Shown: in pieces, positions 12,356 through 32,730 of the stretch | Layout: every line of letters starts with the position of its first letter | Position numbering within the stretch: the first letter of the stretch is position 1 | IMG/VR virus record: IMGVR_UViG_2671180349_000007 | Length of the DNA stretch: 36,567 bases | DNA from: a virus | Taxonomy: Duplodnaviria; Heunggongvirae; Uroviricota; Caudoviricetes | Reading direction: 5' to 3' (one strand) | Position numbers and translations under genes: made by a program | Notes under the pieces: model-generated | The model's input: only the letters and a program-made list of their open reading frames with translations | Told to the model about the DNA's origin: nothing | Database searches by the model: none

Positions 12356-12421
12356 ATTGCTCTAATAATTCCATATTTTTAAAACGTGATGTACACTCAT
12401 CACGTTTTTTATTAGAGCAAT
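12356..12421. promoter_or_regulatory. bivalent C1 operator pair enclosing a terminator hairpin
   Basis: ATTGCTCTAATAATT at 12356-12372 and its inverted partner ATTAGAGCAAT at 12405-12421 flank the hairpin aaaacgtgatg-tacact-catcacgtttt. Confidence 0.6.
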
Positions 12422-12435
12422 CTATAAGGTGCACT

Positions 12436-12654
12436 ATGTGGCCATTCCGACGGAAATATCACTACTGGCTGATCGCCTTTGTTACGCCGACCGGCGGTAT
12501 CAGGCATGTCATCACCAGGTATCGCAACAAGAGACTCACCTTAGCCAGAATTTTACAGGCTGCCATAGGTGAGGGACTGGATACAAATTGCGTAGTCCTT
12601 CCACCTTCATACTTAGGAAAAATGACCGAAGCACAAGCTAATACGGAACTTTGA
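12436..12654 (+). CDS. small hypothetical protein (72 aa)
   Basis: AAGGTG RBS; stop is followed 1 nt later by the next ATG. Confidence 0.45.
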   Translation: MWPFRRKYHYWLIAFVTPTGGIRHVITRYRNKRLTLARILQAAIGEGLDTNCVVLPPSYLGKMTEAQANTEL

Positions 12655-12655
12655 A

Positions 12656-13918
12656 ATGAGCACTTCAGCACAAAACCAATCAATCGAAAATGTATCTATC
12701 CCTGACGTCCTGAATGCCGGTATCCCGGCCATTATCCAGAACATCCGGGCCGCGCAACGCCGCGTTAGTTGTGATGACCTCACAGCACGTTTTTTTGATA
12801 ATGCGGTTCAGTCAGCGGAGATGCTTCACGCACAGCTTATTGATGTTTATAACGCAGAAGCTGATAGCCATAACTCCATGGTAGATGCAGCTGAAAATAT
12901 GCAGTTGGATCTCGGTCTGAAGGGTAAAGAAATTGAAGAGCTTCAGCTGGAAATTGAACATTTGAAACGCCAGCAACAGGACGCGATCGACGATGCGACG
13001 CATGACGCCAACCAGCGTGCTGATAATGCCGAACGTATAAGCATTGAGCTGGAAACAAAACTCAATGAAATGACCACGATGGTTGAACTGCGGAACTCAC
13101 AGATTTCAACGCTAAAATCTCAATATAAAGAGATCATGAAACTTGATCCTTTTAACCTTGAGAAACGCTATAACAAAGCTAAAAGCGAGCGACAGGAACT
13201 GCGTAAGCAGGTCGCCGACCTTAACCAACAGCTCAAAAAAACTATTAAAGATGCAAGCGAAGCGCGCGTGGCATTTGCTAATAAAAAAGCAGAGGTTACC
13301 GCGCTGGTTAATGAGAATGCCAAATTTGCGACGCTCAAGAAGGAAATGTATGGCATTACTGAGCGCCGTTTCCCTGCAAGCAAACTTCATCCGACGTTAG
13401 GGCAAATCTCCTTCTTCCCGCGCCTCCTGGCTTATGGGATCTCATCGCCTAAAGAGTTCAATAACGAGCGTCCTTATATCGTTTCTAAGCTGGACTTTGC
13501 TTATCAGTTCTGCTGCGACATGGGCTATGCCATTGATATCCGGATCAACGAATGGTTGATGCCAAACTTCCAGCCGTTGGCCATTTTCCGCGAGTTCCAG
13601 CCGGAAGGTTGGGTAGAGTTCTTCCATGAATTGATCTGTAAAGAGATGGAAAGCCGCCGCCCGGAACTGGTCCGTCGAGTTGAGTGGGCGCAAGAGGTTA
13701 TGTTGGCAGAGGCAGAGCTGCCGTTCGAATCGGAATTTATTGATGATCTGGGAGCTAAAGGGCTGCATACCCTGTTTGATGTGGTTACCCGCCGTCATGA
13801 GCAGTTGGTTGTCGAATTGGGTTTAGAGGAAACAGCGGCAAGAAGACTTCTCGATGTTTGCTATGCACGTAGCGATGCATGGGAAAAAGAGAACGGCGGC
13901 ACTATTTACGTTCGCTGA
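12656..13918 (+). CDS. coiled-coil protein with C-terminal globular domain (420 aa)
   Basis: Residues about 60-240 are E/K/Q/L-rich heptad-like; Cys/Trp-containing C-terminal domain; no recognised family. Confidence 0.6.
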   Translation: MSTSAQNQSIENVSIPDVLNAGIPAIIQNIRAAQRRVSCDDLTARFFDNAVQSAEMLHAQLIDVYNAEADSHNSMVDAAENMQLDLGLKGKEIEELQLEIEHLKRQQQDAIDDATHDANQRADNAERISIELETKLNEMTTMVELRNSQISTLKSQYKEIMKLDPFNLEKRYNKAKSERQELRKQVADLNQQLKKTIKDASEARVAFANKKAEVTALVNENAKFATLKKEMYGITERRFPASKLHPTLGQISFFPRLLAYGISSPKEFNNERPYIVSKLDFAYQFCCDMGYAIDIRINEWLMPNFQPLAIFREFQPEGWVEFFHELICKEMESRRPELVRRVEWAQEVMLAEAELPFESEFIDDLGAKGLHTLFDVVTRRHEQLVVELGLEETAARRLLDVCYARSDAWEKENGGTIYVR

Positions 13919-13937
13919 CAGTTACAGTGTCACTTTT

Positions 13938-13971
13938 AATGCTGGTGGAGTGCGCCCACCAGCATTTTTTT
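13938..13971 (+). terminator. rho-independent terminator
   Basis: aatgctggtgg-agtgcgc-ccaccagcatt followed by a T-run; the stem contains a Chi octamer GCTGGTGG. Confidence 0.65.
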
Positions 13972-13990
13972 CGTCCAATGAGGAGGGCAT

Positions 13991-14497
13991 TTGAGTATTT
14001 TCAATAAACACGCACACCAGGAACGTCCGTACATCGTCATAGTAGATATTGATGGGACGATATCAGAGGCAACGGAAGACAGGCTGCATTTACTTCCACC
14101 ACCTGGCAAAGGTGCATTAACAGAGCACTGGAACGAGTTTAACCTTGCCTGTGACACTGATGCTCCCATCACTCCAGTTATTGATATGGTGCGCCAGTTG
14201 TCCGGCATTTACACCCTCTGGTTTGTAACCGGGCGCTGTGAGATAGCCAGGGATAAAACACGAGCCTGGTTGCGTAAGCACGTAACAAATGGGGCTGAGC
14301 CTTTGCTATCTATGCGTCCTGCCACCGATGACAGAAATGACGGTCCAGCAAAGATTGATCTCCTGAAGAAAATTGGTCTAAGTAAAATTGCGTTCGCGCT
14401 GGAAGATAAGATTGAAGTGGCGCGTGTTTTCAGGAGTCACGGCGTACTTACGTTAATGGTCAGGGAGTATGAAAACGCGCTTCTTCATCAACAATAA
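13991..14497 (+). CDS. HAD-superfamily phosphatase-like protein
   Basis: TTG start with GAGGAGGG RBS; motif I VIVDIDGT, then FVTGR and DKTRAW elements. Confidence 0.55.
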   Translation: MSIFNKHAHQERPYIVIVDIDGTISEATEDRLHLLPPPGKGALTEHWNEFNLACDTDAPITPVIDMVRQLSGIYTLWFVTGRCEIARDKTRAWLRKHVTNGAEPLLSMRPATDDRNDGPAKIDLLKKIGLSKIAFALEDKIEVARVFRSHGVLTLMVREYENALLHQQ

Positions 14498-14513
14498 TTG
14501 CTCTAATAAATCT
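14497..14513 (+). promoter_or_regulatory. C1 operator
   Basis: ATTGCTCTAATAAATCT, 16/17 match to consensus, overlapping the HAD stop codon. Confidence 0.65.
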
Positions 14514-14595
14514 TGATTTTTAAAACAGAGAAAGTGAAAATAAAAACATGCCGCAAGGCGCGGCATGTATCCAATCAATCACAGGAGCTGAAAAT

Positions 14596-14682
14596 ATGAA
14601 CACGGCATTCAAAATCATTATGGCCGCGATCTATTTCTGGCTGTTCTCTATCACTTTTGGCGGCATCGTCGCACATGGGTAA
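14596..14682 (+). CDS. small hydrophobic peptide (28 aa)
   Basis: AGGAG RBS 8 nt upstream; translation MNTAFKIIMAAIYFWLFSITFGGIVAHG. Confidence 0.35.
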   Translation: MNTAFKIIMAAIYFWLFSITFGGIVAHG

Positions 14683-14691
14683 GGGGGATGC

Positions 14692-15273
14692 ATGAAAGGC
14701 GAAGTGAAAGAGCGCGGCATGATTTTTAACGATGAGATGGTCAGGGCAATTCTTGGCGGGAATAAAACACAGACTCGCAGGATTGTTGAAGAAAAATTCT
14801 ATGGACGGGCAGTGGCCGCAGAGTTGCTTGCTAAACATTGTCCATATGGTCAACCGGGAGATCGTATTTGGGTTCGTGAAACCTACCGGGTACATGGCAA
14901 AGCGACGGACGTCGCAACGCTGGTTTATCGCGCAAGCGTGCGTAACTCCTGGACAGAACAAACGCACCGGGTTCCGGTTGAGGTTTGTAATAAGCCAGTA
15001 TCAGAAAAGTGGACGCCATCAATTCACATGCCGCGCTGGGCATCGCGCATTCTTCTGGAAATTACCAACGTGCGCGTTGAGCGGTTGAACGATATCAGCG
15101 AATGCGATGCAAGGGCTGAGGGCGCACCAACAGAATCGACCCTCATTGGCGATAAGCATTACCCAGGTTTCCGCAGCCTATGGAAATCAATTTATGGCGA
15201 AGATAGTTGGAACGCTAATCCTTGGGTGTGGGTAATAGAGTTTGAGCGTATTCAGGGGGCAACCAGTGAGTGA
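14692..15273 (+). CDS. conserved prophage protein, ASCH/PUA-like (193 aa)
   Basis: AAGGGGG RBS; motifs FNDEMVRAILGGNKTQTRR and GDRIWVRET. Confidence 0.6.
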   Translation: MKGEVKERGMIFNDEMVRAILGGNKTQTRRIVEEKFYGRAVAAELLAKHCPYGQPGDRIWVRETYRVHGKATDVATLVYRASVRNSWTEQTHRVPVEVCNKPVSEKWTPSIHMPRWASRILLEITNVRVERLNDISECDARAEGAPTESTLIGDKHYPGFRSLWKSIYGEDSWNANPWVWVIEFERIQGATSE

Positions 15274-26607: not shown

Positions 26608-27659
26608 GAACGTCATTAGTCACCCGTGAAGAGATGATCGAGGCAATTGAACAGCACACTGCCTGTATCAGTACCAGGGATATACCGGGCGTTATTGCCA
26701 ACTACTTCATGATCACCAAACAACTTTACCGGAGAAAGGACAAGAACGCTGTTCACCGCATTCTGTTGTCTGATATCCGCGAATACCTGCTCGAACAGGG
26801 GCATCTGAATTACGCAACCGTCGCAGCCGAAACACGCAAGGAGGCACACAGAATGAAAGCAAGCAAACCAGATGTTGTCGTTACAAAGCCTTTGACAGCA
26901 ACCACACCAGCACCGGTCATGGATGCTATCCCCAACACCGGAGACACAATCGACAGCCAGACGCTGTTAAAGATGGTTAATGAGGCGCGTAAGTTATGTG
27001 GGGAACCATTAGTAAGAAATAATAAGTTTATTGAGAAGGTTGTGGATGAGCTTGAAGGTGAGACCTACACAAAAAGTGTAGGTCGCAAAAATGGTGCAAA
27101 CATAGACATTATCACCATGACTTTCAAACAAGCCCTGCGAGTCGCCGCGCGCGAGTCAAAAGCGGTCCGCCGTTCGCTGATCGACAAGCTGGAGGAGTTG
27201 CAGCAGGTTAGCGCTGCTTCTCCAGCGATCCCCCAAACATTGCCCGAAGCTCTGCGCCTGGCTGCCGAACTGGCTGAACAAAAGCAACTTCTGGAACAGA
27301 AAGCCCACCAGCTAAATCAGCAGCTGGTGGCCGCAGCCCCCAAAGTCGATTTTGCCGACCGGGTATCAGTGGCTAAGGGGATCCTGATTGGAAATTTTGC
27401 AAAGGTTGTTGGACTTAAGCAAAACGCGCTGTTTGCCTGGTTACGGGAGAACGGCATCCTGATTGCGTCCGGCGGACGTAAAAATGTGCCATTCCAGCAG
27501 TACATCAACGCCGGGTATTTCACTGTGAAAGAAGTGGTGCTAGATGATGAAGATGGCTACCAGATACGGCTGACGCCTCAATTAACGGGGAAAGGCCAGC
27601 AGTGGTTGACGCGTAAGCTGCTCGATGCTGGCTTGTTAAAACCGGTGGCGGCTGAATAA
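26604..27659 (+). CDS. ant: antirepressor Ant, KilAC-type C-terminal domain
   Basis: 351-aa ORF coupled to icd; C-terminal ILIGNFAKVVGLKQNALFAWLRENGIL region typical of phage antirepressors. Confidence 0.7.
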   Translation: MRTSLVTREEMIEAIEQHTACISTRDIPGVIANYFMITKQLYRRKDKNAVHRILLSDIREYLLEQGHLNYATVAAETRKEAHRMKASKPDVVVTKPLTATTPAPVMDAIPNTGDTIDSQTLLKMVNEARKLCGEPLVRNNKFIEKVVDELEGETYTKSVGRKNGANIDIITMTFKQALRVAARESKAVRRSLIDKLEELQQVSAASPAIPQTLPEALRLAAELAEQKQLLEQKAHQLNQQLVAAAPKVDFADRVSVAKGILIGNFAKVVGLKQNALFAWLRENGILIASGGRKNVPFQQYINAGYFTVKEVVLDDEDGYQIRLTPQLTGKGQQWLTRKLLDAGLLKPVAAE

Positions 27660-27666
27660 TGGAAGA

Positions 27667-27688
27667 ATGCCCGGTTGATGCCGGGCAT
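27667..27688. terminator. hairpin between convergent ant and c1
   Basis: ATGCCCGG-ttgatg-CCGGGCAT followed by an A/T-rich stretch. Confidence 0.45.
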
Positions 27689-31705: not shown

Positions 31706-31731
31706 CATTGGCGGCCGAAAGGCCGCCTTTT
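31706..31731 (+). terminator. hairpin with T-run on the plus strand
   Basis: GGCGGCC-gaaa-GGCCGCC followed by TTTTTT. Confidence 0.45.
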
Positions 31732-31735
31732 TTAA

Positions 31736-32689
31736 TCATTCAGCCGCCACCGGTTTTAACAAGCCAGCATCGAGCAGTTTACGCGTCAACCACTGTTGGC
31801 CTTTCCCCGTTAATTGAGGCGTCAGCCGTATCTGATAGCCATCTTCATCATCCAGCACCACTTCTTTCACTGTGAAATATCCGGCGTTTATGTACTGCTG
31901 AAACGGTACATTTTTACGTCCGCCGGACGCAATCAGGATGCCGTTCTCCCGTAACCAGGCAAACAACGCGTTTTGCTTAAGCCCAACAACCTTTGCAAAA
32001 TTTCCAATCAGGATCCCCTTGGCCCCTGATACCCGGTCGGCAAAATCGACTTTAGGGGCGGCGGCCACCAGCTGCTGATTTAGCTGGTGGGCTTTCTGTT
32101 CCAGAAGTTGCTTTTGTTCAGCCAGCTCGGCAGCCAGGCGCAGAGCTTCGGGGAGTGTTTGGGGAATCACTGGAGAAGCAGTGCTAGCCTGCTGCAATTC
32201 CTCCAGTTTGTCGATCAGCGAACGGCGGACCGCTTTTGACTCGCGCGCGGCAACTCTCAGGGCTTGTTTGTAGGTCATGGAGATAGTTTCAGATGTTGTG
32301 TTGTTTAATTTTTGCACTACGAAAATTTCGTAGTACTCACCATCCAGTTCATCCTTAACTCTGGCAATAAAATCATTATTGCGAACTGGTTTTTCGCTAC
32401 ATAATTTCCGCGCTTCATTGACCATCTTTAACAGCGTCTGGCTGTCGATTGTGTCTCCGGTGTTGGGGATAGCATCCATGGCCGTTGCTGGTGTGGTTGC
32501 TGTCAAAGGCTTTGTAACGACAACATCTGGTTTGCTTGCTTTCATTCTGTGTGCCTCCTTGCGTGTTTCGGCTGCGACGGTTGCGTAATTCAGATGCCCC
32601 TGTTCGAGCAGGTATTCGCGAATATCAGACAGCAGGATACGGTGAACCGCGTTCTTGTCCTTTCTCCGGTAAAGTTGTTTGGTGATCAT
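31736..32689 (-). pseudogene. second ant-like antirepressor copy, mosaic, 5'-truncated by transposon insertion
   Basis: 317-aa ORF matching residues 35-351 of the 26604 ant gene except for a divergent central block; its first codon abuts the transposon IR at 32693. Confidence 0.65.
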
Positions 32690-32692
32690 GAA

Positions 32693-32730
32693 GGGCTCCG
32701 TTTGGGAAACGGAAAATATTGTACGTTAAG
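32693..32730. repeat. transposon left 38-bp terminal inverted repeat
   Basis: Perfect inverted match to 36530-36567; the tnpA stop lies inside it, as is typical for the Tn3 family. Confidence 0.8.

Follow-up and report, generated by a model that had tools for sequence, protein, structure and literature searches.

In phage P1, pmgR, pmgS and pap are long-annotated genes, and the P1 record carries operators annotated as controlling pmgR and pmgS. A published knockout found pmgR essential, with unjoined tails and incomplete heads, a phenotype similar to the description of pacA packaging control. A CRISPRi screen scored the same gene nonessential, which its authors regard as a miss. Plaques still form when pmgS or pap is disrupted; knockouts and knockdowns of either gene are viable, and the knockouts are restricted normally on EcoA, EcoB and EcoK hosts. 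According to published work the virion contains neither PmgR nor PmgS. PmgR is missing from the virion inventory of the 2026 cryo-EM paper, although at 8.3 kDa it is of a size that mass spectrometry and cryo-EM could overlook. PmgS is not mentioned in the main text of that paper or of the virion proteome paper, and the cryo-EM connector is wholly accounted for by Prt, PmgC, gp7 and gp24. For Pap, the described system most like it is the C-terminal domain of T4 Pnkp/PseT (PDB 5uj0, 2ia5, 1ltq), in which the roles of Asp165, Asp167, Ser211, Lys258 and Asp278 are published (PMC3592404). Our literature searches for a biochemical study of P1 Pap, and for biochemical characterisation of the stand-alone Pap-like phosphatases of PHROG 415, found none.

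The locus described here lies in a 36,567-nucleotide stretch of phage DNA (the window), and its three ORFs are these P1 genes. The sequence-only reading had recognized no obvious P1 counterpart for any of them; this was wrong, as P1 annotates all three, with 72 of 72 residues identical for PmgR, 412 of 420 for PmgS and 160 of 168 for Pap (100%, 98% and 95%). At the DNA level, the locus is 97-98% identical to P1, P7, RCS47 and JL22. The proteins are orthologues of P1 PmgR, PmgS and Pap (AAQ14062-64) and of P7 ShtA, ShtB and Pap (AAQ07557-59, the names used in the P7 annotation), and the RCS47 record also annotates pmgR, pmgS and pap. High identity is accompanied by conserved synteny with the annotated genes and operators: gene order, spacing, operators, hairpins and start codons are identical to those of P1 and P7, down to the operator and hairpin sequences, and only a few substitutions separate them. 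Downstream of approximately 14750 the window resembles P7 and RCS47, with upf86.8-type genes, unlike P1 with its pmgT. The RCS47 record is collinear with the window only to approximately 15.3 kb, with patchy matching beyond. A genome-contig scan for related loci yielded three loci only, and single-protein scans with two queries (P0107 and P0101) gave no matches. An Rfam scan of 12000-15000 returned no RNA family; one match, to GcvB, was below threshold (E = 0.15).

The locus is thus the early operon pmgR-pmgS of the P1 family, with the accessory gene pap downstream of it (Table 1). The joint explanation that we favor, with a probability of roughly 0.6, is that pmgR-pmgS forms an early, non-structural DNA module and that pap is a separate gene of the 3'-phosphatase type.

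Table 1. Features of the pmgR-pmgS-pap locus and its surroundings (window coordinates; aa, amino acids; nt, nucleotides)
Feature	Position	Strand	Basis or remark
ppp, lambda-type Ser/Thr metallophosphoesterase, upstream operon	10964-11656	+	Annotation
C1 operator-like site (P1 OpmgRa, former Op86a)	12356-12372	+	Consensus match; same position annotated in P1 and P7
Predicted sigma-70 promoter PpmgR	-35 12357-12362, -10 12380-12385	+	Transferred from P1
Hairpin and T-run between the two operators	12381-12408	+	RNA fold
Second C1 operator-like site (P1 OpmgRb, former Op86b)	12405-12421	-	Consensus match and P1 annotation
pmgR (P7 shtA), 72 aa	12436-12654	+	72/72 identical to P1 and P7
pmgS (P7 shtB), 420 aa	12656-13918	+	412/420 identical to P1
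PmgS coiled-coil hairpin	aa 41-232, nt 12776-13351	+	Predicted model
PmgS family-signature beta/alpha domain	aa 233-350, nt 13352-13705	+	Motifs RINEWLMPN and RPELVRRVEWA
PmgS C-terminal (HhH)2 domain, predicted	aa 351-412, nt 13706-13891	+	Fold and family profile
Intrinsic-terminator-like hairpin and T7 between pmgS and pap	13938-13973	+	RNA fold; same in P1 and P7
pap Shine-Dalgarno GAGGAGGG	13980-13987	+	Precedes TTG start
pap, 168 aa, TTG start	13991-14497	+	160/168 identical to P1 Pap
C1 operator-like site (P1 OpmgT, former Op88)	14497-14513	+	Consensus; annotated in P1 and P7

The 17-bp asymmetric operator consensus, ATTGCTCTAATAAATTT, has 10 matches in the window compared to 0.21 expected from shuffled sequences. 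The first operator of the locus, ATTGCTCTAATAATTCC, fits the consensus and overlaps the -35 element of PpmgR, so that the predicted sites show the arrangement of a C1-controlled early operon, a 17-bp operator overlapping a sigma-70 promoter. The second is inverted relative to the first and lies 49 bp from it. Three relatives (L004, L006 and L016) keep the inverted pair with the same spacing, and an operator-like site occurs at the equivalent place in a clade of approximately 50% identity. In the prophage-plasmid state, C1 would occupy both sites; because they bracket PpmgR, the genes would be kept off in lysogens and turned on early once the prophage is induced. The third operator, ATTGCTCTAATAAATCT, has one mismatch to the consensus and belongs to the next early operon; it begins on the final base of the stop codon of pap. 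A search for a late promoter upstream of pmgR found no Lpa-type -22 box.

Two hairpins punctuate this arrangement. The one between the first two operators (-13.4 kcal/mol, z = -5.0; none of 200 shuffles folded equally well), whose sequence is the same in P1 and P7, is likely a terminator for read-through out of the upstream pmgN-pmgQ operon, and the predicted PpmgR start would fall within it. The one between pmgS and pap folds over 13938-13966 (-18.1 kcal/mol, z = -4.3) into an 11-bp stem with a 7-nt loop, followed by T7. Description of the locus as an operator-controlled trio therefore holds in part: operators flank the genes and the P1 record assigns them control of pmgR and pmgS, but pap lies behind the terminator-like hairpin and no promoter-like site was found upstream of it. 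Nor are the three genes one functional unit, since relatives lack pap or carry inserted genes in front of it while the pmgR-pmgS pair is kept. The recognition of pap as an accessory gene of its own, set off by a terminator-like hairpin, is new here. The Chi octamer GCTGGTGG is present in both arms of the pmgS-pap hairpin, at 13941-13948 (+) and 13956-13963 (-). We considered whether a Chi-bearing hairpin might be a conserved pmgS-specific element and set the idea aside: the whole genome is enriched in Chi, the window has inverted Chi pairs at four sites, and the other two lineages that show such a hairpin (D6 and L010) form a single subclade.

In at least seven divergent P1-like lineages a pmgS-like gene is immediately preceded by one for a PmgR homologue, and in the window the two genes meet at a TGA-A-ATG junction. 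They are a translationally coupled pair conserved across P1-like elements, a finding new here. In P1, PmgR is needed for complete heads or for head-tail joining. On published data, PmgR has an assembly phenotype and was not found in virions. The 420-aa protein PmgS is not a known structural component, being unmentioned in the main text of both virion papers and having a viable knockout. PmgR and PmgS would act on the phage DNA or at the DNA-to-head step rather than as building blocks of the particle.

The two proteins could instead be truly morphogenetic, acting in head completion, as a scaffold or in relation to the sheath, with PmgS a dispensable chaperone or scaffold that works with PmgR. 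The unjoined tails and incomplete heads of the pmgR knockout fit such a role, as does the conserved, coupled gene pair. Scaffolds and assembly chaperones often carry long coiled coils, and morphogenetic labels are attached to the genes in P1, P7 ('ShtA/ShtB', sheath), D6 and PHROG 1660 ('PmgS-like head morphogenesis'). However, these names are mainly positional ('putative morphogenetic function'), the pmgS knockout forms normal plaques, and the pair appears to be expressed from an early C1-controlled promoter. The P1 capsid protein also has its own cleaved N-terminal segment of 120 residues (virion proteome paper), which may be an internal scaffold. Finally, homologues of PmgS outside the P1-like elements occur without PmgR in early regions devoted to recombination and methylation. 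Taken together, we regard a morphogenetic function as quite unlikely.

Those homologues were surveyed in 10 non-P1 gene neighborhoods, for which we give raw counts with no background model. RecE/RecT is encoded upstream of the PmgS-like gene in L022/L023, L024 and L021, a DNA methyltransferase lies within two genes of it in five contexts (L012, L020, L021, L027 and L028), and an integrase is close by in five (L012, L020, L021, L023 and L027). Capsid or tail gene surroundings were seen in 0 of the 10, and a search for an adjoining PmgR homologue found none (best E = 0.17). Outside P1-like elements, PmgS homologues, among them the distant ones of lambdoid-type phages, are early-left operon genes near RecE/RecT, orphan DNA methyltransferases and integrases, a placement that is also new. 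Since they sit among early recombination and methylase genes and never among head genes, the 'head morphogenesis' label of PmgS is probably a misnomer.

The PmgS family comprises approximately 117 clusters (117 representatives). The AF2 model of the window protein (mean pLDDT 75) starts its ordered part with two very long helices, aa 41-160 and aa 166-232, behind which the C-terminal part mixes beta and alpha structure, and the C-terminal 188 residues contain four Cys and four Trp compared to one and none in the N-terminal 232. Model and composition together bear out the sequence-only reading of a long coiled-coil N-terminal region and a Cys/Trp-rich C-terminus. The last approximately 60 residues superpose on the RAD51C N-terminal domain (rmsd 1.7 Å, TM 0.78 on the target; Foldseek E-value 0.06). 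A profile of 37 family members matches the RAD51 NTD (E = 1.2e-7) and the alphaCTD (E = 2e-7), so that the assignment is also made at the level of sequence profiles, and the HHH_5 and RNA_pol_A_CTD families each match 10 of the 37. We therefore predict that the PmgS family ends in an (HhH)2 domain of the RAD51-NTD/RNAP-αCTD type, an assignment new to this work. Across RAD51/RadA NTD, RNAP alpha-CTD and NusA AR2, the family match is at E of approximately 1e-7 with an rmsd of 1.5-1.7 Å over approximately 55-60 residues. PmgS differs from those proteins in that its domain is combined with a coiled coil of 190 residues and with a central domain specific to the family; the whole would be an elongated protein built of these three parts.

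For the P1 clade the assignment is weaker by sequence. The profile of the clade alone gives a marginal (HhH)2 match (E 0.2-0.4; 0.23-0.36), its hairpins read KGLHT and LGLEE and lack the usual G-h-G, and acidic residues outnumber basic ones in the domain (15 D+E, 8 K+R). Canonical GIG hairpins are present in a lambdoid homologue. With its degenerate hairpins and acidic composition the P1-clade domain is closer to the protein-binding NusA AR2 than to a DNA binder; for these two reasons, the P1-clade C-terminus may bind protein rather than DNA. Single-sequence searches with PmgS (Pfam, NCBIfam, PADLOC, PDB) returned SMC, LmuB, JetC and keratin, which we attribute to coiled-coil composition. PmgS as an SMC-like defence protein (LmuB, JetC) or as SMC/Rad50 was rejected: the matches cover only aa ~50-235 at 9-19 bits where the family cut-offs are 300-1000 bits, PmgS has no P-loop, and the ABC-type ATPase heads that flank the coiled coil in such proteins are absent. 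When the whole model was compared with the viral BFVD library by Foldseek, no match reached an E-value under 0.05.

One reading would join these observations. PmgS would represent an unrecognized early family, with a coiled coil, signature domain and (HhH)2, that belongs functionally to recombination and DNA-maturation modules, and the pairing with PmgR in P1 would couple recombination-dependent concatemers to head filling. Lambdoid PmgS would travel with RecE/RecT and orphan methylases, while P1-like phages, which have no Rec module, would use host RecA/RecBCD and abundant Chi to make packageable concatemers. This more specific proposal is speculative, and we hold it only tentatively.

The third gene product is, as judged from its sequence, a stand-alone HAD (DxDxT) phosphatase of the T4 Pnkp 3'-phosphatase type. 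Pap scores 44.1 bits (E = 3e-11) against Pfam HAD_PNKP (PF25109), above the curated gathering threshold of 27.6; its family profile matches Pnkp1 (2.8e-6) and T4 Pnkp (5e-6) in the PDB; and the top 19 Foldseek matches of the model, itself of moderate quality (pLDDT 62), are all T4 Pnkp or Pnkp1. The DIDGT motif noted earlier is confirmed and occupies residues 19-23; the remaining HAD motifs are present too, and all are invariant in the family (D19, D21, T23, T80, K121 and E138-D139 across 11 members). These residues align with T4 Pnkp D165, D167, S211, K258 and D277-D278, such that D19, D21, T80, K121 and D139 correspond to T4 D165, D167, S211, K258 and D278. The fold and active site of the DxDxT acylphosphatases and the CDTD and D-x-R-x-D-x3-K signatures are common to both. 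Pap differs from T4 Pnkp, at approximately 20% identity, in 16 extra residues that follow motif I, ahead of CDTD, and have no T4 counterpart, in the replacement of the first Asp of the DD pair by Glu, and in the lack of the P-loop 5'-kinase domain found at the N-terminus of T4 Pnkp. Its alignment covers positions 156-292 of the PHROG 505 profile, which has 295, and T4 residues ~157-292, and at 168 aa it is not a bifunctional Pnkp of the T4 PseT type. The resemblance to end-healing enzymes that had been suspected is thus real, and the alternative that the protein would group with housekeeping nucleotidases was not seen. By analogy, Pap would be a Mg2+-dependent aspartyl-phosphate phosphatase with D19 as nucleophile, D21 as acid-base, T80 and K121 as phosphate ligands and D139 as metal ligand. 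Its most likely targets are 3'-phosphates, and possibly 2',3'-cyclic phosphates, of nucleic-acid ends or 3'-nucleotides. It would heal the 3' side only, because it has no kinase partner: RCS47, the closest relative, collinear with the window to approximately 15.3 kb and matching in patches beyond, has no annotated ligase or polynucleotide kinase.

Relatives of Pap were found in 1164 phage records. Those of T1-like phages, Webervirus and Kagunavirus (PHROG 415) are 36-42% identical over their whole length, have approximately 150-240 aa and contain HAD_PNKP only, but they belong to virulent siphoviruses and have other neighbors, including a P-loop protein. Public labels for Pap-like proteins vary ('polynucleotide kinase', 'acid phosphatase', '3'-phosphatase'), and pap itself is already a '3'-phosphatase' in public records.

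A possible functional partner is suggested by co-variation: each P1-like lineage sampled has either both ppp and pap or neither, and in K1ind1 and Vibrio phage Vp_R1 the surroundings of the Pap-like gene also include a metallophosphoesterase gene. Independently of the proposal for PmgS, and held just as tentatively, Ppp and Pap might be two enzymes that jointly heal 3' ends and are acquired and lost as a pair. In herni, gp36 was compared with the metallophosphoesterase-like ORF19 of K1ind1 and rejected as a homologue.

Pap might alternatively serve the nucleotide pool, as a 3'-deoxynucleotidase or nucleotidase and not as a polynucleotide end healer. The T4 Pnkp phosphatase hydrolyses 3'-TMP as well (PMC3592404). 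In K1ind1 and the T1-like herni the Pap-like gene is beside or near one for a conserved P-loop protein with 'GPxGxGKDT', 52% identical in the two phages and similar to small nucleotide kinases. Pap relatives also give weak, sub-threshold NT5C and Acid_phosphat_B matches, and P1, going by the RCS47 annotation, lacks both the kinase and the ligase that a full repair pathway would need. However, Pap passes the curated HAD_PNKP cut-off while the nucleotidase families stay below theirs, its best structural matches are Pnkp enzymes, and we know of no degradation of host DNA by P1 for nucleotide salvage. We consider this possible but doubtful.

Mending of broken tRNA together with the phage tRNA, as performed by T4 Pnkp and Rnl1, is very improbable. 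Membership of HAD_PNKP and the match to Pnkp1 of the RNA-repair complex point that way, as does a 3'-5' exoribonuclease gene between pmgS and pap in one relative (L006). Ppp is a lambda-type phosphatase, and such phosphatases act as 2',3'-cyclic phosphodiesterases (PMC2190708). The link to the phage tRNA drawn from sequence alone is nevertheless unsupported: the sole tRNA in the window (1137-1212) is 11 kb away in a different transcription unit, and neither a 5'-kinase domain in Pap nor an RNA ligase or polynucleotide kinase annotated in RCS47 accompanies it. In addition, taking off the 3'-phosphate would, to our knowledge, hinder the host RtcB ligase.

PmgS, or Pap with Ppp, or both, could also act as counter-defence against a host immune system that attacks DNA or RNA or detects phage DNA. 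Both pmgS and pap are early, nonessential and dispensable in laboratory hosts, the family evolves fast (17-28% identity across the distant members sampled), and the accessory array in which they lie includes, in relatives, DarB-like antirestriction genes, a Tad2-like gene, a NADAR gene, orphan methylases and an Rv2179c-like exoribonuclease. Against this, the knockouts were restricted normally, the PmgS matches to LmuB, JetC and SMC are confined to the coiled coil, and the fact that PmgS is so closely paired with an essential protein, PmgR, favors a core rather than a host-specific role in P1-like phages. We judge the idea rather unlikely.

As these are catalogued P1 genes, the finding carries little weight beyond the correction of two propagated annotations. 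'PmgS-like head morphogenesis' (PHROG 1660, in RefSeq phage records) lacks structural support and is at odds with the settings in which the genes occur, and 'polynucleotide kinase' on Pap-like proteins is an over-annotation that names a domain they do not have. The early, non-structural reading of pmgR-pmgS also offers a lead on why PmgR, a non-virion protein, is essential. If PmgR and PmgS serve DNA maturation, they would fill a gap in the replication-to-packaging pathway of P1 that lies behind generalized transduction.

The locus holds three same-strand ORFs, as the sequence-only reading described, but these are already known genes of phage P1. When window positions 12000-15000 were compared with phage genomes by megablast, all 19 records matched were P1-like, at 97-98% identity. 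The P1 record (AF234172) labels the genes pmgR, pmgS and pap, the P7 record (AF503408) calls them shtA, shtB and pap, and the record of the P1-like relative RCS47 has pmgR, pmgS and pap at exactly matching relative coordinates. Identities are 72/72, 412/420 and 160/168 residues to the P1 proteins and 72/72, 416/420 and 157/168 to those of P7. In view of this annotation and protein identity, the claim that none of the three has an obvious P1 counterpart was wrong. Past about 15.3 kb, the match between the window and RCS47 becomes mosaic.

Coordinates of features in the window and, where a locus is named, in related elements
Feature	Position	Strand	Details
tRNA-Met (anticodon CAT)	1137-1212		5' of ban/dnaB-like helicase gene
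Inverted Chi pairs	7946/7960, 13938-13966, 27305/27323, 32065/32083		three confirmed as perfect inverted repeats
Upstream pmg genes	9054-12354		labelled 'putative morphogenetic'
PmgM	in 9054-12354		VRR-NUC nuclease annotation
PmgO	in 9054-12354		MptE-like or sialyltransferase-like annotation
PmgQ	in 9054-12354		glycosyltransferase annotation
ppp	10964-11656		metallophosphoesterase
C1 operator match	12356-12372	+	half of inverted pair
C1 operator match	12405-12421	-	other half; 49 bp spacing
ORF 1, pmgR	12436-12654	+	72 aa
ORF 2, pmgS	12656-13918	+	420 aa; ATG one base past ORF 1 TGA
Intrinsic-terminator-like hairpin	13938-13966		3' of pmgS; 11-bp stem, -18.1 kcal/mol, z = -4.3, then T7
ORF 3, pap	13991-14497	+	168 aa; TTG start four bases 3' of Shine-Dalgarno GAGGAGGG
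Third C1 operator	14497-14513		starts at last base of pap stop codon; part of next operon
Hairpin	14546-14568		5' of small ORF
Small ORF	14597-14682	+	28-aa strongly hydrophobic peptide MNTAFKIIMAAIYFWLFSITFGGIVAHG; good AGGAG ribosome-binding site
Long inverted repeats	26705-27670 vs 31725-32693		566 nt 93% and 364 nt 91% complementary
Rv2179c-like exoribonuclease gene	L006 5135-5683		between pmgS and pap
Tad2-like gene	L017 5512-5865		directly 5' of pmgR homologue
Chi-pair hairpin	L019 (D6) 5295/5359		3' of pmgS-like gene
Chi-pair hairpin	L010 8321/8364		3' of pmgS-like gene
P-loop protein	L029 4387-4977		herni gp42
P-loop protein	L030 3477-4031		K1ind1 ORF17
NADAR-domain gene	L031 2645-2962		Vibrio phage Vp_R1; directly 5' of Pap-like phosphatase

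The consensus operator of the P1 repressor C1 has 10 matches in the window, against 0.21 expected. Two of these form an inverted pair flanking both sides of PpmgR, a promoter named from the P1 record, in which it controls pmgR and pmgS. The inverted pair recurs with equal spacing in three related loci (L004, L006 and L016) with protein identities of only about 50%. A search of the coding strand 5' of pmgR showed no -22 box of P1 late promoters. Given C1 operators around PpmgR and no late box, expression of pmgR and pmgS looks early and repressor-controlled. The two operators enclose a hairpin with a T-run behind it (-13.4 kcal/mol, z = -5.0), which we infer stops read-through out of the upstream pmgN-pmgQ operon.

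A terminator-like hairpin separates pmgS from pap, no promoter-like site was found 5' of pap, and predicted operator control of pap would hinge on read-through. The proposed operator-controlled trio thus holds only in part, for pmgR and pmgS as in the P1 record. Linkage of pap to pmgS is loose: one or two genes are inserted between them in L004, L006 and L016 (in L006, a 3'-5' exoribonuclease gene, Pfam E = 3e-50, and a 101-aa ORF), and pap is absent within the retrieved flanks of L003, L007, L010, L013, L018 and the P1-like element D6. With pap parted from pmgS or missing in relatives, a three-gene functional unit is not supported. The gene pap co-varies with ppp, which encodes a lambda-type metallophosphoesterase: the P1/P7/RCS47 group, L004, L006 and L016 have both, and the retrieved flanks of L003, L007/L008, L018, L010, L013 and D6 have neither, a pattern that may reflect a single gain. 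These flanks do contain pmgR and pmgS, and in some lineages pmgQ too. K1ind1 (a weak match) and Vibrio phage Vp_R1 likewise have metallophosphoesterase genes close to their Pap-like genes.

Pap falls in Pfam HAD_PNKP with a score above the curated cut-off, and its PHROGs families bear the label 'polynucleotide kinase'. The family alignment has invariant D19-x-D21-G-T23, C54-D-T-D57, T80-G-R82, D113-x-R115-x-D117-x3-K121 and E138-D139, which align through the family profile with T4 Pnkp C184-D-T-D187, S211-G-R213, D250-x-R252-x-D254-x3-K258 and D277-D278 (numbers counted from the profile alignment), and likewise with Pnkp1. For the AlphaFold2 model (pLDDT 62; core 70-86), the top 19 PDB matches are the T4 Pnkp phosphatase and Pnkp1. 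In T4 Pnkp, Asp165 acts as nucleophile and Asp167 as acid-base, Ser211 and Lys258 touch the phosphate and Asp278 holds Mg2+; on its own the phosphatase domain turns RNA 2',3'-cyclic phosphate ends and 3'- or 2'-phosphate ends into hydroxyls, and it hydrolyses 3'-TMP as well (PMC3592404). Unlike T4 Pnkp, Pap lacks a kinase domain, and the annotation of RCS47, collinear with the window only to about 15.3 kb and patchy beyond, lists neither a ligase nor a polynucleotide kinase. Stand-alone Pap-like phosphatases turn up in 1164 phage records; those in T1-like, Webervirus and Kagunavirus phages show 36-42% identity. Pap is an ordinary member of this widespread, apparently uncharacterised family. 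The suggested resemblance to end-healing enzymes thus holds at the level of family membership, which public annotation already states; the suggested tRNA link is not supported, the only tRNA in the window being 11 kb away. In K1ind1 and herni (Kagunavirus, T1-like), a conserved P-loop protein (Walker A 'GPxGxGKDT', mutually 52% identical) adjoins or nears the Pap-like phosphatase gene and could be a nucleotide or polynucleotide kinase partnering it.

The window is rich in Chi (26 sites vs 0.85 expected), and the octamer GCTGGTGG lies on both arms of the hairpin after pmgS. Chi richness of P1 is documented (50 sites) in a paper with no mention of hairpin arms containing Chi (PMC12315714). The similar Chi-pair hairpins in D6 and L010 belong to one subclade. 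Elsewhere, the c1/coi immunity region lies within about 4-5 kb enclosed by the long inverted repeats. The small hydrophobic ORF lies just 3' of the Op88-type operator and hairpin; a 'membrane protein' among features under the 12000-15000 match in the Salmonella phage SJ46 record is a candidate match to it.

A PmgR homologue lies directly 5' of the pmgS-like gene in P1-like elements (L003, L004, L006, L007, L010, L013, L018 and D6), down to about 20-25% PmgS identity. The motifs F-RK-HFW and S[YW]LG[KR]MTE recur in these homologues, and no PmgR homologue was found beside PmgS-like genes outside P1-like elements. PmgR and PmgS are thus read as a module in P1-like phages. One Xenorhabdus contig carries pmgR without pmgS, consistent with a dispensable pmgS. 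There (X. szentirmaii, L017), the Tad2-like gene (anti-Thoeris family, PF11195) precedes the pmgR homologue, and a T6SS Tle1-like cassette follows on the opposite strand.

A word-indexed search with PmgS returned only 29 clusters, nearly all from P1-like phage-plasmids; an exhaustive profile search found 117 representatives (50% clustering), 83 of them below 1e-10, and most are 350-470 aa long and share one architecture. In the AlphaFold2 model (pLDDT 75), a short N-terminal helix is followed by two very long ones (41-160 and 166-232), then by a small region rich in beta strands and a C-terminal part made of helices. Foldseek matched nothing globally; the final ~60 residues superpose on the N-terminal domains of RAD51C, RAD51 and RadA and on NusA AR2 (rmsd 1.5-1.7 A, TM 0.78 on target, E about 0.06). 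Among 37 diverse family members, HHH_5 was found in 10 and RNA_pol_A_CTD in 10, and the family profile matched RAD51 NTD at 1.2e-7 and alphaCTD at 2e-7. Sequence evidence for this (HhH)2 domain is thus stronger at the level of the family. Taken alone, the P1-clade profile gives a marginal signal (E 0.2-0.4), and the P1-clade domain is acidic with degenerate hairpins; it may be a protein-binding domain in P1, like NusA AR2. The central domain (motifs RINEWLMPN and RPELVRRVEWA) has zero detectable relatives. One E. coli protein (P0002, 480 aa) is 94% identical to PmgS with full coverage and exceeds the usual length by 60 residues; it has a DNA_methylase match (PF00145) and goes under the name 'DNA cytosine methyltransferase'. 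A fusion or gene-call artefact is probable, and the match echoes methylases adjoining PmgS-like genes elsewhere.

Gonzales et al. 2022 made in-frame deletions of P1 genes (PMC9024508). The pmgR knockout gave zero infectious particles, with tails and incomplete heads in lysates, which resembles the published description of the pacA (terminase) control, with proheads and complete tails. Phages without pmgS or pap were viable, their restriction phenotypes being normal on EcoA, EcoB and EcoK hosts, and both genes were likewise nonessential in a CRISPRi screen. PmgR was undetected in the virion proteome, and pmgS is without mention in that paper's main text (PMC9024508). A 2026 cryo-EM study, whose maps are said to identify nearly every protein along the particle from head to tail, models the connector wholly as Prt, PmgC, gp7 and gp24 and mentions neither PmgR nor PmgS (PMC12810830). 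Thus the 'morphogenetic', 'sheath' and 'head morphogenesis' labels of PmgS have no structural data behind them, and the knockout phenotype is the sole support for those of PmgR. Several upstream pmg genes carry enzyme-like RefSeq/PHROGs annotations, and the array from pmgL to pap, taken as a whole, resembles a cluster of early accessory or DNA-related genes more than a set of morphogenesis genes.

Outside P1-like elements, neighbours of PmgS-like genes are early-left-operon functions. RecE-like exonuclease and RecT lie directly 5' in two loci (L022/L023), RecT and Gp157 are near in Pseudomonas phage 15b, and in Aeromonas phiARM81mr RecE, RecT and integrase are 5' and Dam two genes 3'. YfdP and YfdQ, whose genes are common in lambdoid early-left operons (PMC12315714), lie 5' and a methyltransferase directly 3' in Vibrio phage 1F273_PE002 and L027. 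Dam is directly 5' in L012, a C5-methylase two genes 5' in L028, and L026 has NUDIX and DUF4942 5' and NinX 3'. A capsid or tail cluster surrounded PmgS-like genes in none of the 10 non-P1 contexts, and we therefore see in PmgS not a head protein but an early protein that takes part in DNA transactions or binds a partner.

P1 reportedly relies on RecA and RecBCD of its host, and recombination stimulated by Chi has been proposed to aid formation of packaging-ready concatemers (PMC12315714). PmgR and PmgS may act between recombination or replication and head filling, a role that the packaging-like pmgR knockout phenotype fits. Useful by-products of the analysis are the (HhH)2 assignment of the PmgS family, its early-left-operon context, the conserved PmgR-PmgS pairing and an argument for both proteins being non-structural.
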